Under the pieces are notes generated by a model. That model was not told where the DNA came from. It saw nothing but the letters and a program-made list of their open reading frames with translations, and searched no databases. From NCBI GenBank assembly GCA_046583315.1, contig JAYGCN010000011.1, positions 28,562 to 92,561 on the forward strand: a stretch of DNA of 64,000 nucleotides. Direction: 5' to 3'. Origin of the DNA: Candidatus Hydrogenedentota bacterium. Its GTDB lineage: Bacteria > Hydrogenedentota > Hydrogenedentia > Hydrogenedentales > GCA-2746185. This document shows, piece after piece, positions 3,268 to 45,420 of this stretch. Position 1 is the first letter of the stretch, and each line of letters opens with the position of its first letter. The translations under genes and the position numbers were made by a program.

Positions 3268-4020
3268 ATGTTAGAAGTTAAAAATTTCCACGTCAGCGTC
3301 GAAGACACTGAAATCCTCAGAGGCCTCGACCTTACCGTCAACGCCGGCGAAGTACACGCCATCATGGGACCCAACGGTTCCGGTAAAAGTACGCTCGCCC
3401 AGGCCCTCGCCGGTCACAACGCCTACGACATTACCCAGGGGTCTGCCACTTTCCTCGGGCAGGACCTTCTCGAAATGCCTCCAGAAGAACGGGCGCGGCT
3501 CGGCCTCTTCCTCGCCTTCCAATACCCCGTCGAAATCCCCGGCATCTCCAATGCGTACTTCCTTCAATCGTCACTCAACGAAGTCCGCAAGAGCCACGGC
3601 CTCGAGGAACTGGACGCCCTCGATTTTCAAGACCTCCTTGCCAAAAAAATGGAGCTCGTAAACGTCCCGCTGCATTTCGCCGATCGTAACGTCAACGAAT
3701 GCTTCTCCGGTGGCGAGAAATAACGCAACGAGATCTTACAGATGGCTGTCATGGAACCTAAACTCGCCATCCTCGACGAAACCGACTCCGGCCTCGACAT
3801 CGACGCCTTGCGCATCGTCTCCGACGGCATCAACAACCTGCGCAACCCCGAGCGCGCATTCGTGCTCATCACCCATTACCAACGACTGCTCGACTACGTG
3901 AAACCCGACTTCGTGCACGTGCTCTATCAAGGCCGCATCGTCAAGTCGGGTGGACCTGAACTGGCCATGGAACTGGAAGAAAAGGGATACGACTGGATCC
4001 GCGAGTTAAACCCCGCCTAA
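3268..4020 (+). CDS. sufC: Fe-S cluster assembly ATPase SufC, interrupted by in-frame TAA at 3721-3723
   Basis: [48 protein letters not shown]; both halves in the same frame. Confidence 0.93.
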
Positions 4021-15446: not shown

Positions 15447-18400
15447 TTAGCCAATGTAAATAAATTCCTTGGACATATACAGCACCTGACACAGATCTTT
15501 CCAGAGGTCGGTATTGTTCAAAACGTCATCTTCACTCAATTGATACGCCTCGGCCTGTTGCGCCAAGAATTGATTCACAGTCGAAAGCTCGACATCGGAG
15601 GCTGCACGCCCGAACGCGCTCATGTAGGCTGTGTTCACACGATCATTTATCGACGCTGGATGCGCCTCCATCAGCGATTTCGCCCACGCTTCGGCCTGCG
15701 CAACAATAAAGGGATCGTTCATCATAATGAGTGACTGTGCAGGCACGTTGGACACCGTGCGTTTGCCGATCGTGGTGTCCGGCAGCGGCATATCGAAGGC
15801 GAGCATCATCGGCGACAAAAAGTTTCGCTGCACACGCATGTAGATCGAACGGCGCCGATCGGCATCCACCGGCCCAGATTCGCCGGGTCGACGGTGATTG
15901 GTCATAAAAGGATAGAGGTGCGCCGCGACGGAATTTCCGTACATGGTATCGTTGAGCTCGCCCGCAACGGCCAACACGGCATCGCGAATAATTTCCCCTT
16001 CGAGTCGACGCACATTTTGCCGATGAAGCAGGAAATTCGCGGGGTCCTTTTCTTCGGCAGCGGCATCGCTGAGGCCACTCGACATGGCGTAGGCTTCGGA
16101 TGTAACGATGAGGCGAATCGTGTCCTTGATGGACCAGCCATCGTCGCGGAATTGGGTCGCGAGATAGTCGAGCAACTCGGGATGCGTCGGTGTACGACCC
16201 AATACGCCGAAGTTGTCCACCGATTCGACGATGCCTCTGCCGAACAGATGGTGCCAGAGGCGATTGACCATGACCCGCGCGGTCAGGGGATTATTTTTGT
16301 CGAGGATCTGGTCTGCGAGTTGGAGTCTGCCTTCATTCATTTCTTCGGGTTTGGGTGCGTTGCCGCCGAGGGCTTCGAGGAATCGTCCGGGTGTTGTGTC
16401 GCCGGGGGAAGTGTGATTTCCGCGTACGAATACGTGTGCGTCTTGGGAGTAGCCTTTGGCCATGGCGAGAACGATGATGGGTTCTGGTATTTCGGCAGCT
16501 TGATCGGCGATTTTACGTTTGATGTTGAGGTATTTTTTGTCGAACTTCTTTCGCCCGATAAGGTCTTTTTCGAGAAGGAAATTTAGGTATCCGGTGGTAA
16601 GTGTGTCGGTGGATTGATCTTTCCAGTTGGCGAATCCTTTTTTCGCCCAGTTGGCGTATGCGTTGATGAGGTCGTCGTAGTCTTCGATCGATCCACCGTT
16701 TTTTTCGAGTACTTGCTTCGTTTTGAGTGGGACGGCTTTTTGGTTTGTGAACCGAATTTCGTCTACGGCTATCCATCCGTCGCCATCATCGATGATTTCG
16801 ATGTAGGCTTGTTTACCTTTGAATTTATGTAGGTTTGCGATCTGGGTTTCCCAGGCGTAGGTGGAGTTGTTGTTGATGGTGGAGAGTGAACCGTTGAAGA
16901 GGAGTCCGTTGAATTCGCGGATCTGGTATTGGTTGATGACGAGGCGCAATTTACCTTTTCGGCCTGCTGTACGGTATTGGAGTCCGTCGTGGGTGATGGT
17001 GAAGTTGGGTGATCGTAGTACGCCGCGAAGTTTGGCTGAGGTTCGTGCGCTGTGTACGACGCCTTCGGGGATGAGTGTTGTGCTGTTGGATGCTGTGGAG
17101 AATTCGGGTTGGGTGGTAGGGGCTTCTCCGAAGGCTTCTCCGGTGGCGGTCCAGTTTTCGAATGTGCCGTCGTTAAAGGTAGCGAAGACGACGGATTCGG
17201 GTTGTTCTTTGGCTTTGGGTATTGATTTTCCGGAGGCCATGCGTGCCCATGGGTAGAAGGGGTGGTTTGGATTCGCTGTGCGTTTGTGTGCAAGGGCGTT
17301 GACCCAGCGTTTGGTTGTGTCGTAGTCGAGATTGCATTTTTTTGCGGTATCGATTATCTTTTGGTCGGGGATTTCGATTTTTTCTGCGCTGATATCGAAG
17401 TCTTCTCCGACGATTTCTTTGAGTGCGAGCAGGTAGTCTTTGATGTCGGGGGCGGACTTGGCGAGGGTTGGGACGGCTTTGTTGATGGTCTTGATGGCGT
17501 CGGCTTGCTGTTTAGCGAGGGTGTTGGATTTGGATTTTATTTTGTCGAATTGATCGAGGAATGCGAATTGCTGGCGTGATGAGCGGATGTAGCTGGTCAT
17601 GGAGTAGTAGTCTTTGGTGGAGATGGCGTCGAATTTGTGGTCGTGGCAGCGTGCACACGCGACGGTCATACCGAGGAAGGCTTTGCCAAGTACGTCGATT
17701 TGGTTATCGATGCGGTCGGCTTCATCTTTGACGACGTCCACGGGCGCGTGGGTGGCCTGATGCATGAACCACCAGCCGGTACCGACTATCGATTCGTTAA
17801 ATCCCTCTTCTTTGTTCATGCGCGGGTTGCCGAGCAAATCGCCCGCAATCTGTTCGCGCACAAATTCGTCGTAGGGCAAATCCTGATTCAAGGCCCGGAT
17901 GACATAGTCTCGATATTGCCACGCGTGCCGAATCGGATAGTCGCCTTCATGACCGTAGGTTTCCGCATAACGTGTGATGTCCAGCCAGTGACGACCCCAG
18001 CGTTCCCCGAATGCCGGATTCGCAAGCAACTTATCAACAATGTTGGCGTAGGCATCGGACGAGGAATCGTTTGCGAAGGCTTCAACCGCCCCAGGTGTTG
18101 GCGGCAGTCCGATCAGATCAAAATGAATCCGGCGAATCAGCGTACGTTTTTCGGCACGCGATGCAGGATTGAGTCCCTCGGCTTCAAGTGCGGCCCGGAC
18201 GAATCCGTCAACCGGGTTTTTGTTCCAGGCGGAATCGGAAACCTTGGGGACCGCCGGGCTGGTGATCGGTTGCCAGGCCCAGTGGGATTTCGCACGCCTT
18301 TCCAAATCAAACGTGTCTTTTTCGATGCTTTCAGCGGGAAGCGGTTCATCGGGCCACGGAGCGCCCATCGCGATCCAATTCGTGAGCTTGTCGATTTCCT

Positions 18401-41768: not shown

Positions 41769-43808
41769 TTAATCCTCGGAAACCGCTTCCGGCGGGGATG
41801 TAGCTTCCAGATGCGTAGAAGCCTCCAAAACCCTGCGCGCTTGCCGCAACTGTTCATGCGCGCCGACCAAAACCAAGACATCTGATTCCGCAAGCACAAA
41901 TTCCGGCGTCGGATTCGTATTTGGCTCGCGATCCCGCACCACCGCGATAATCGTGGCACCGGATAGCCGACGCAAATCGATTTCGGCTATTGTCTTTCCG
42001 CAGGCACTGCTCGTCTTCGGCAAATAGAAGGTCTGCGTCGCCGTAAGCTGCAACACCTTAAGCAAATCTTCCATGCTTTCCGCTGAGCTGCTCGAACGAC
42101 CTCGGAATACGCCGTAATCTCCCGCACGTACCGCCGCCACCTGCGCCGCCAATATATTTCGCGGGACGTCGAATTCTTCCAACACATGCGAGAAAATTTT
42201 GACGGACGCTTCGAAATCCGCCGGTACCACCACATTGGCACCCAACTTGGACAGCGGTTCAAGATCGGTCACGAAGTACGTGCTCACCGCAATGTAAATA
42301 TCCGGCTTGGCACGCCGCGCGTTGGACACGATGCGTTTACTGTCTTCCTGATTATTCACCGCGACAACAATTGCCCGTGCCCTATCAATTCCAGCATGAC
42401 CGAGAATGATGGATCGTGTAGCATCTCCCACAACCACCGGCGCGTCCATCGAACGCGCCTTGTGGACCAACCCATGGTTCATCTCAATAACGCAATGCGG
42501 TATATGTGTCGATTGGAGCACCTGCACAAGATTCTGCCCGTTGATGCCGAACCCTACGATGACTACATGGCCGTTTAGACTCTCTTCTGTTTCGTCCGCT
42601 TCAAATTCGCCTTGCGATAACTGACGCATGTCCTTCGAATTCAAAATCACCTGCACGCGCCCGGCCAATTTCCCGCCCAGCGGAAACAGAATCGCGCCGA
42701 ACACCATTGTGCCCACGGTGTACGCTATCATCGTATCCAGAAAGGTCTCAGGCAGCAACCCCGCGTTATCCGCCTCGCGCGCCAGCACATAACCAAACTC
42801 ACTCACCGTGCAAAGGCCCAGGCCTACTTTAATCCCGATGCGCAACGGCCAGCCGGCGAGCTTCACCGCGACGATTGTGATGACAGCCTTACCCACCAGC
42901 GTAAGGACGATGGCAACGCCCATCCAGTGCCAGGCATCAAACACCGTATCCAGTCGCACCGTCATTCCCAACGCAATAAAGAACAAGGCGTTAAACACAT
43001 CGCGAAACGGCGTAATTTCCGCAACCAACTGATGCCGAATATCCGCGTTCGCAAGCAGCAATCCCGCCACGCACGCGCCCATTGCCGGTGGCCATCCCGC
43101 GATCTGTGCAAGATACGCGCCGCCGCAGGCCATCATCACCGCAAACAAGGTGATCAATTCACGACCACCGTGCAACACAAGCTGCCCGATAAAAAATGGC
43201 AGCATTTTGCGCGCAAGCAACGCCACCAGCACCAGCGCGCCGAGCATGCTAAAGACAAACAGTGGACTCCTGCCGCCTTCCACATCCGAACCCGTCAAGA
43301 ACAACGGCATCATTATCATCACAACAATCACGAAGATGTCCTGCAACAAAAGAATACCCGTGATAAGGTTGCCCATCACCGATTGAACTTCACCGCGATC
43401 GGTAAGTTGCTTCAACACGATAGCTGTGCTGCTCAACGACACCGCAATCCCGATGATCAACGCCGCACCCAGCGACATCGAACCGGCCACCACCAGCGTG
43501 CCCATCGTCACGCCGATCACGCCAAGCGCAATCACTACCATCACCCGCACCACCCGCATGCCCATCCGCATTAACGGCGCAGGAGATAACTCGAGCCCAA
43601 TGGTGAACAACAGCAGCACCAGCCCCGTCTCCGCGAACTGACCCACCGATTCCTGCCCAATCAGCTTCCAGCTCGACGGCCCAATCACCATGCCCGTACA
43701 CAGAAATCCAATAATAGAGGGGGCCTTCGCCATGCGGAAAATCCACGACACGACGACCGCCGTACCGAACAAAACCGCAATTTGACCTAAAAATTGGGCA
43801 TCATGCAT
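41769..43808 (-). CDS. CPA2 (Kef-type) cation/H+ antiporter with TrkA-N and TrkA-C domains
   Basis: LLFTIGLE, SLSSTAIV, LLQD, PFRDVF, VSEFGYVL, GFGING, C-terminal GATIIAVVR. Confidence 0.92.
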   Translation of the reverse strand: MHDAQFLGQIAVLFGTAVVVSWIFRMAKAPSIIGFLCTGMVIGPSSWKLIGQESVGQFAETGLVLLLFTIGLELSPAPLMRMGMRVVRVMVVIALGVIGVTMGTLVVAGSMSLGAALIIGIAVSLSSTAIVLKQLTDRGEVQSVMGNLITGILLLQDIFVIVVMIMMPLFLTGSDVEGGRSPLFVFSMLGALVLVALLARKMLPFFIGQLVLHGGRELITLFAVMMACGGAYLAQIAGWPPAMGACVAGLLLANADIRHQLVAEITPFRDVFNALFFIALGMTVRLDTVFDAWHWMGVAIVLTLVGKAVITIVAVKLAGWPLRIGIKVGLGLCTVSEFGYVLAREADNAGLLPETFLDTMIAYTVGTMVFGAILFPLGGKLAGRVQVILNSKDMRQLSQGEFEADETEESLNGHVVIVGFGINGQNLVQVLQSTHIPHCVIEMNHGLVHKARSMDAPVVVGDATRSIILGHAGIDRARAIVVAVNNQEDSKRIVSNARRAKPDIYIAVSTYFVTDLEPLSKLGANVVVPADFEASVKIFSHVLEEFDVPRNILAAQVAAVRAGDYGVFRGRSSSSAESMEDLLKVLQLTATQTFYLPKTSSACGKTIAEIDLRRLSGATIIAVVRDREPNTNPTPEFVLAESDVLVLVGAHEQLRQARRVLEASTHLEATSPPEAVSED

Positions 43809-44022
43809 GAAAAATCGGGTCCCCAACCGGTGTACAACAAGAAATTACACTAAATACCTGTCTGCCAAGTGATTATACACCAATTGATCGTGCTATTCAT
43901 GCTTCATCCTCACACGTTTCTACCGCCTCGATATCGAATAGAAGGCTTATTTTAAGGACTTTTTCGGCAATATAAGCTAATTCGTCAAATGCACAATTTT
44001 TGCCGTCCAGTGTATTATATAG

Positions 44023-44051
44023 TTGACATACGATCTAAACCATGTTACGCT
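44023..44051 (+). promoter_or_regulatory. Sigma70-type promoter
   Basis: TTGACA-N17-TACGCT with a TG extension before the -10. Confidence 0.65.
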
Positions 44052-44055
44052 CCCA

Positions 44056-44220
44056 CCAATATATATTCGCAGTATTGGCAAATTGTACCGTCACAGACGT
44101 GCGGCCCCGTTTCTCAATTCAGCAAAGAACTTATAAGCCGCATAAGGCGGCCAGTCAGTAGAGATCCCCTGGGCATGAGGACTACTAAACTCCTGAGGCA
44201 AACGCCTCAGGGGTTTTCTG
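44056..44220 (+). ncRNA. Candidate structured small RNA or attenuating leader, family not recognised
   Basis: Lies between a consensus promoter and a strong terminator; contains several consecutive hairpins and no plausible ORF. Confidence 0.5.
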
Positions 44221-44223
44221 TTT
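44187..44223 (+). terminator. Intrinsic terminator
   Basis: AAACTCCTGAGGC-AAAC-GCCTCAGGGGTTT followed by TCTGTTT. Confidence 0.75.
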
Positions 44224-44295
44224 CGACAAGTATACGAGCTGCGGGCTGGCATCTGCCCTTCTTGCTTCAAATTACACCGAATACTATACTCAACC

Positions 44296-45420
44296 ATGCT
44301 TCGTTATTTTTTCACGAGCCTCACCTTCATGCTGCTCACTCTTCCGGTTTCGGCGGCTGATGTCGATGCGATGATGCGGCAATGGGACAACGAATCGTCC
44401 CCCGGCGCGGCCATTCTCATAGCACGAGACGGCAAGATCCTGCTGAACAAGAGTTACGGCATGGCGCACATCGAGTCGAAGACACCCATCGGTGCAGACA
44501 CGAAATTCTTGCTCGCCTCGATAACCAAACCCTTCACGGCCCTCAGCATCATCATGTGCGAGGAGTGAGGTTTGCTCGATTACGATGATTCGCTTCGAAA
44601 ATTTTATCCGGAATTCCCCCGCTTCATGAAGGACATTACCGTTCGCCACTTGTTGAATCACACTGCCGGGTTGTACGAATACGAACGTCTCTTCGTGCGT
44701 CACGGAAAAGTGGACCGTGATTGGCCCCGCTCCGCAAAAACGCCACGATCCAATTACGAACCAACATCTCAAGGCACGCTCACTCTTTTAACCGAACTGA
44801 AAAAACTCCGATTCGATTCCGGAACGCGCTATGAATACAGCAATTCCGGATACGTCCTCCTTGCGCAAATCGTCGAAAAGGTCGACGGCCGAAAATTCGC
44901 GCGATTCATCAAGGAGGAGATCCTCGATCCCGTCGGCATGAATGACTCACTTCTCTACGACGAATCTGAACCGATAATCGAAAACCGGGCCACAAGCTAC
45001 ACCCCGCGCACCGACGATTCTCCTGAAGGCGCACTCGCATACGTGGATATCGACTACACTCCATTCAATTTTATATATGGAGAGGACAATCTGTACACAA
45101 CGACATAAGATTTGTTTAAGTTCGATCAGGCACTCTACACCGAAAAACTCGTAAGCGTCGTCTCTCTCCAAAAAGCCTTTACGCCGGCCACGCTGAATTC
45201 CGGTGAGACATCGGATTACGGTTTCGGCTGGTTTCTCGGAGAAAAAGATGGGAAAAGGTCGGTCTTTCACGGCGGCGGGTGGCTTGGCTTCCGCAATTAC
45301 TTCCTTCGGGAGATCGACGAGCACAATACCTACATCTTCTTCAGCAATCTCACAAACGGCCCCAACAACCAAATGAAAATCGAACTTCCCAGAATTCTTC
45401 ACGAATCAATTCGCGATTGA
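44296..45420 (+). pseudogene. Serine hydrolase (beta-lactamase class C-like) with in-frame TGA 44566 and TAA 45106
   Basis: Signal peptide, ASITK (SxxK), LLNHTAG, YSN, YGFGW, HGG; all three pieces in one frame. Confidence 0.85.

Follow-up and report, generated by a model that had tools for sequence, protein, structure and literature searches.

What lies in the 487-nt intergenic region that separates a divergent gene for a KefC-like CPA2 cation antiporter (41769..43808, minus strand; Na_H_Exchanger, TrkA_N and TrkA_C domains) from a plus-strand gene for a serine hydrolase (PF00144, 44296..45420) in the window, that is, in the whole 64,000-nt stretch of DNA analyzed here? The genome of the window (G000) measures 4.65 Mb and is 96.7% complete. 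A first-pass annotation had read the region as a small RNA with its own promoter and terminator, either a stand-alone RNA of an undescribed family or an attenuator of the hydrolase gene. Judging from sequence, we consider the element probably an orphan small RNA unit, as yet unproven. Its DNA occurs in 20 listed metagenome runs of marine or vent origin (14 studies), not one of which is recorded as RNA.

The unit begins with a sigma70-type promoter-like site at 44023..44051 on the plus strand, composed of TTGACA (44023), a 17-nt spacer and TACGCT (44046), with an extended −10 TG at 44043-44; both boxes and the spacer are as first described. An automated promoter scan missed this site because TACGCT has three of the six consensus letters and the scan needs four, and we therefore counted the motif class genome-wide. 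Sites of the form TTGACA-17-TAnnnT lie outside crude ORFs in 82 of 88 cases, although the non-coding share of the genome is ~12%, and those that also carry the extended −10 TG, as the window copy does, do so in 20 of 20. This enrichment above chance makes TTGACA-17-TACGCT credible as a promoter and agrees with the proposal that the RNA would have one of its own. By our own criterion, a strong terminator within 60-330 nt follows two of the 88 sites, one of them the window copy. The other site with a strong hairpin and U run close behind, at G000:C210:15789 (+), is a candidate for another short RNA or a leader. A weaker upstream promoter-like site (43990..44018, plus strand, 9/12 consensus) is at chance level in the scan (2 found, 2.4 expected).

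The unit ends with an intrinsic terminator at 44187..44222 on the plus strand, made of a 13-bp stem, a 4-nt loop and a U-rich tail. The hairpin itself (44187-44216) folds with z −7.18, and none of 300 shuffles was as good, placing the terminator described in the first-pass annotation far above chance. Alleles of the unit could be compared from eight of the 20 metagenome runs, all as contigs and mostly at depth 3-8. Terminator substitutions among them fall at 44212 (four runs) and 44206 (one run), and pairing is kept in both; the base of the stem carries a 1-nt deletion in runs X3, X6 and X10. Between the two ends we place a predicted non-coding RNA of ~160 nt (44058..44222, plus strand). Its start at about 44058 is set by the 6-nt gap at which the spacing from −10 motif to ATG peaks in this genome (41 motifs at 6 nt against about 10-20, and only 9 at 5 nt), a peak which suggests that some genes of the genome are leaderless. 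Because the interval between this strong promoter-like site and the equally strong terminator has no credible ORF, a stand-alone small RNA gene is likely, and the first-pass suggestion of one is, on this layout, on the Rfam results below and on the like arrangement at the same place in sister species, the reading we retain.

The absence of a credible ORF, also claimed at the outset, holds up: the short ORFs have no Shine-Dalgarno site, none of the four tested matches any NCBIfam family, and natural indels shift the frame of those that were compared between runs. A small-peptide gene could be the ATG-started 39-aa ORF at 44042-44161, or else shorter ORFs inside it; the 39-codon frame ends just before the terminator, and a transcript from the weaker upstream promoter-like site could contain its start. 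Its ATG, however, lies within the spacer of the main promoter, and X10 carries a frameshift in it, as does X3 close to its end. The ESM Atlas returned no usable match for this ORF, an uninformative result. We give a peptide gene hardly any weight.

The second half of the first-pass proposal, a cis attenuator or riboswitch controlling the hydrolase gene, has in its favor a terminator upstream of a same-strand gene and, in the window allele, a match of 6 bp that links 44166-71 to the 3′ arm of the terminator. Modeling does not bear it out. The terminator forms with a probability of about 1 in the read-through RNA, so that no antiterminator emerges, and the long-range pairing of about 44094 with about 44244 (CAGACG.../GGGCTGG...) that had been offered as an alternative structure reaches a probability of at most 0.10; the 44212 allele of four runs breaks the 6-bp match. 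Furthermore, the hydrolase gene has a separate promoter-like site, TTGCTT-17-TATACT at 44262..44290 on the plus strand, 5 nt before its ATG, from a motif class with 104 of 141 sites outside ORFs. Leaderless expression from this site is only possible, because the genome's peak is at a 6-nt gap and there is none at 5 nt. No riboswitch family matches, and the comparable unit in the sister clade (below) faces a convergent gene. Attenuation is accordingly very unlikely.

The hydrolase gene itself is in poor condition, with two in-frame stops (44566 TGA and 45106 TAA). Runs X3 and X5 have a sense codon in place of the first, and other runs have a short-repeat insertion near 44358-44374; the decay is recent and polymorphic. 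Selenocysteine read-through was considered and rejected, since the stop at 45106 is TAA and two runs lack the one at 44566. The genome encodes tRNA-Sec and tmRNA. No match to the hydrolase was found at E 1e-25 among 30 relatives, and its nearest protein has 71% identity; the block behind the window RNA looks lineage-specific.

How much structure lies between promoter and terminator? Each motif named in the first-pass annotation is present at its place, but the picture of a chain of hairpins survives only in part. The one stable hairpin of the body is GCCGC-ATAAG-GCGGC (GCCGCATAAGGCGGC, 44137..44151, plus strand), which pairs with probability 0.95-1.0 in all five alleles folded (0.98 in the window allele). 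The remaining three are weak, at 0.2-0.4 in the window allele: the 4-bp CGTC-ACA-GACG (CGTCACAGACG, 44089..44099, plus strand; 0.2-0.4), the AGTAG (44157)...CTACT (44182) stem (44157..44186, plus strand; 0.35, falling to 0-0.19 in X3, X6 and X10), and the inverted repeat CCAATA (44056)/TATTGG (44073) that spans the predicted start (44056..44078, plus strand; 0.26). In the folded alleles X6 and X10 the CCAATA and AGTAG pairings are near 0, and the GCCGC hairpin and the terminator persist. Between the CGTC and GCCGC hairpins runs a C/U-rich linker (44100..44136, plus strand), largely flexible although it includes a 4-bp stem at 44111-44129, and varying in X10. The fold of the body as a whole is at chance: for 44057-44186 the minimum free energy has z 0.12, with 156 of 300 shuffles folding equally well, and a second value was z −0.32. 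Because the body z is about 0, the z of −2.5 found for the element as a whole is likely mostly that of the terminator. Perfect local stems are mildly above shuffles (5 stems, 76/1000; 24 bp, 14/1000; best 17-nt hairpin, 8/200), with a loop limit that was chosen after the stems were seen.

CCAATA starts 2 nt before the predicted start at 44058, so the RNA would keep only four of the six pairs; the repeat may be a weak hairpin or a DNA operator. The latter would suit an account in which the act of transcription or the terminator matters rather than the RNA, the unit tuning the divergent kefC promoter through supercoiling and a shared operator at CCAATA...TATTGG and insulating the hydrolase gene from read-through. 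Strong ends around a loose body, the back-to-back placement with kefC, the inverted repeat over the start, and the presence of transcription units at the kefC slot of relatives as well are all as this account expects. Against it, the exact CCAATA...TATTGG pattern is limited to two genomic places, both in non-coding DNA, and relaxing it brings out no clear regulon; moreover, the units of the relatives are themselves conserved RNAs. We regard this account as improbable.

Homologues of the RNA were searched for widely. The window has no Rfam match at gathering threshold, and the best hits over 43800-44400 have E values of 0.43 and 2.7 at 14 bits; the first-pass view that the RNA is unlike known riboswitches, SRP RNA, tmRNA and RNase P thus passed the Rfam covariance-model search that it had called for. 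Resemblances to c-di-AMP, cobalamin and nhaA riboswitches were dropped, there being no Rfam support for them. There are no paralogues in the genome by blastn or nhmmer, and no homologues among 60 relatives. Across 134 genomes of the phylum BLAST yielded no more than one 22-nt match (G025, L055), and a covariance model made from the window sequence in duplicate found no match. Plasmids gave two 27-nt matches at E 0.9 and no homologue, phages no homologue. The 15-mer of the GCCGC hairpin occurs in 46 viral loci, the best scoring 15.7 bits, none with a convincing extension. A two-block pattern of the RNA has no match in the genome contig collection, and the DNA upstream of kefC at 29 non-self loci holds no real match to it. 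With no second member found, the term "undescribed family" is not borne out, and the window RNA stands without a family or covariation of its own. Literature searches on small RNAs of Hydrogenedentota returned no paper. One study (PMC8557413) names fast evolution, false-positive predictions and rearrangements as what makes small RNA homologues hard to find, which for the window RNA cuts both ways. The RNA looks young or fast-evolving.

One partial match was examined and set aside. Positions 44080-44100 agree at 20 of 21 letters with the cysS promoter (G000:C165:39512-39532, equivalent to L002:1501-1521; E 0.03-0.11), probably by chance. The palindrome of this type is not enriched outside ORFs (only 24 of 272 sites) and is kept before cysS in none of five relatives, two of which have the −10 core alone. 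The minus-strand TACAAT in the 44080-44100 region has no −35 at 17 nt.

Body variants occur among the strains at 44106, 44113, 44152-55 and 44164 (two alleles); none affects a paired base of the four named body hairpins, although these make up no more than roughly one third of it. In the promoter, X8 and X10 carry an allele closer to consensus at 44050 in the −10 box. Variable sites number 10 in the 194 nt of the unit against 3 in 293 nt of flanks (Fisher p 0.008) and 7 in the 159 nt of the RNA alone (p 0.04 against the flanks), at a depth that is low and uneven in both comparisons; several of the differences, seen in one contig each near depth 5, may be sequencing errors.

Such variation, indels included, in excess of the flanks is what one would expect of a relic, in which the promoter and terminator are left over from an older unit (the G-rich small RNA gene of the genus, described below, or a deleted short gene) and drive a transcript of little or no function that is decaying like the adjoining hydrolase pseudogene with its two stops. 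The body fold at chance fits equally well. Promoter and terminator are nevertheless intact, and their substitutions retain function-like features. We hold this relic reading to be possible, on balance doubtful, and its remaining evidence comes from the kefC slot of relatives.

KefC orthologues are present in 38 of 61 genomes; a scan with a KefC alignment turned up 19 loci, six of them examined, whereas scanning metagenomes and genomes with one KefC protein at a time gave no match. The orthologue matches of five relatives (L013, L014, L015, L024 and L031) have one internal stop codon, which may reflect alignment overhang or broken genes. In the sister clade (L005/G001 and the metagenome loci L105 and L108) the kefC slot holds a promoter-RNA-terminator unit in the same orientation as that of the window. 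From the kefC ATG to the −10 there are 238 nt in the window against 208-221 in the sister clade, and from the −10 to the terminator end 170 against 163-169. The sister-clade product is a G-rich RNA (L005:1111-1315, L105:2111-2315 and L108:1354-1564, minus strand) with a G-rich loop and an antisense block of ~27 nt. It is well supported by covariation, both partners differing in 9 of its 33 pairs where slid controls reach 3 at most, as judged from three sequences, two of them near-identical, and with one 6-bp helix of its model R3 one column off. It has no Rfam match at family level, and R3 finds it in one of 135 phylum genomes. A further unit, a GGA-rich hairpin chain plus terminator common to G006 and L123 (L006:~3600-3900), lies on the same strand as kefC, upstream of it; it has no Rfam match and is a candidate CsrB/RsmY-like RNA.

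The antisense block of the G-rich RNA is directed at a C-rich RNA, which we aligned from 13 genomes. The C-rich RNA is widely conserved, has three hairpins and no Rfam match, and in the genome of the window exists as one copy only (L042:1435-1570, equivalent to G000:C236:24449-24586, plus strand), upstream of a conserved gene of ~335 aa, presumably xylose-isomerase-like. The pattern for the C-rich/G-rich antisense block is present in 26 of 31 genomes, and co-folding of the two RNAs of G001 gains −18.2 kcal/mol against −6.3 ± 2.4 for shuffles (none of 60 as good), marking them as a candidate sponge pair. The genome of the window has a possible G-rich counterpart on contig C285 (L129:~700-925, equivalent to G000:C285:~17200-17425, minus strand), with a promoter-like site, a G-rich loop and a 20-nt perfect antisense block; its co-folding gain with the C-rich RNA is −22, a raw value without shuffle baseline, and the element may be the G-rich RNA's equivalent in this genome or else a long leader belonging to the gene that follows. 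The idea that the G-rich RNA had remained next to the membrane gene on C78 was rejected; the gene after it begins within about 30 nt. Elsewhere in this genome, on C5, there is a 6S-like RNA (L003:1501-1689, minus strand, equivalent to G000:C5:5955-6143) that scores 41.6 of 46.4 bits, just below the Rfam cut-off.

Is the window RNA a relative of the G-rich RNA? Slot and size match, and a candidate G-rich counterpart sits elsewhere in the genome (C285), both of which count for the relic reading. The sequence of the window allele argues otherwise: 222 of 248 shuffles score as well against the G-rich profile, pairwise comparison is at chance, and model R3 gives no match (its misplaced helix leaves the sequence-only profile unaffected). 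Allele X10 is slightly above shuffles against that profile (8 of 267 as good, a post hoc comparison), the only hint of descent. The KefC N-terminus of the window genome has 70-74% identity, against 84-98% within the sister clade, making this genome an outgroup, so that the slot may have been filled independently, which again tells against a relic of the G-rich gene. Our boldest reading of the whole, which we think unlikely, is that the kefC-divergent slot of the genus houses a G-rich anti-sRNA that soaks up the C-rich RNA by means of a complementary stretch of about 20-29 nt, and that the window RNA is its descendant, free to drift or re-target after the C285 copy took over. If true, this would catch the turnover of an Hfq-free circuit of small RNA and sponge in an uncultured phylum.

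Present-day partners of the window RNA did not emerge. A target scan of 3086 start regions, a crude test, found 9 matches of 14 or more pairs against 13.2 ± 2.8 in shuffles, and neither the C-rich RNA (equaled by 41 of 200 and by 22 of 60 shuffles) nor the C285 RNA (by 13 of 30) pairs with it better than expected by chance. Hfq was not found in the 96.7% complete genome; csrA is present. The latter, with the GGA-rich candidate beside kefC in G006 and L123, could be taken to favor a protein decoy, acting as a sponge for CsrA or as another 6S-like RNA. Yet the predicted RNA has one GGA on its plus strand and no stable rod fold, and a 6S-like gene already exists on C5. A decoy role thus strikes us as most improbable.

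We therefore return to the stand-alone small RNA gene, which we favor tentatively: a gene of ~160 nt, so far in this species only, for a regulator that would base-pair in trans, probably without Hfq. Transcription by the sigma70 housekeeping polymerase would run from near 44058 to the terminator at 44187-44222, whose hairpin, together with that of GCCGC, would shield the RNA from decay; the flexible C/U-rich linker at about 44100-44136 is a candidate seed for pairing in trans. The RNA would fill a kefC-divergent slot that holds small RNA genes in relatives too. This reading is weakened by the lack of a homologue, the body fold at chance, the weakness of three of the four body hairpins, and a unit more variable than its flanks.

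Trans-encoded small regulatory RNAs with their own sigma70 promoter and intrinsic terminator are a known class in bacteria, and the window RNA resembles them in size, autonomous promoter and terminator, intergenic place and lack of an ORF; it departs from them in its barely structured body and in that no family member, seed, target or Hfq was found. With 6S RNA (RF00013), CsrB/RsmY-type sponges and riboswitch attenuators it shares a similar size range bounded by promoter and terminator. However, 6S RNA is a long rod with a central bubble, and RF00013 does not match the window RNA, its only match in the genome being the 41.6-bit one on C5; CsrA-sequestering RNAs present several GGA motifs in loops, unlike the single plus-strand GGA here; and attenuators have an antiterminator, which the window RNA does not show. 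Closer to home, it shares with the C-rich RNA its genome and an uncatalogued status, and it has two short C runs, but not the three hairpins, CCCCC loops and conserved linker, and the C-rich model R1 gives no match over the element even with filters off. To the sister-clade G-rich RNA it is alike in slot, orientation, length and a short GC hairpin before the terminator, whereas the covarying rod, the G-rich apical loop and the block antisense to the C-rich RNA belong to the latter alone. Three different RNA candidates at one slot offer a case of small RNA gene turnover. Taken by itself the window RNA adds another probable orphan to the small RNAs of bacteria and is only modestly interesting; more promising is the G-rich/C-rich pair of its relatives, a testable candidate for a chaperone-free small RNA and its sponge.
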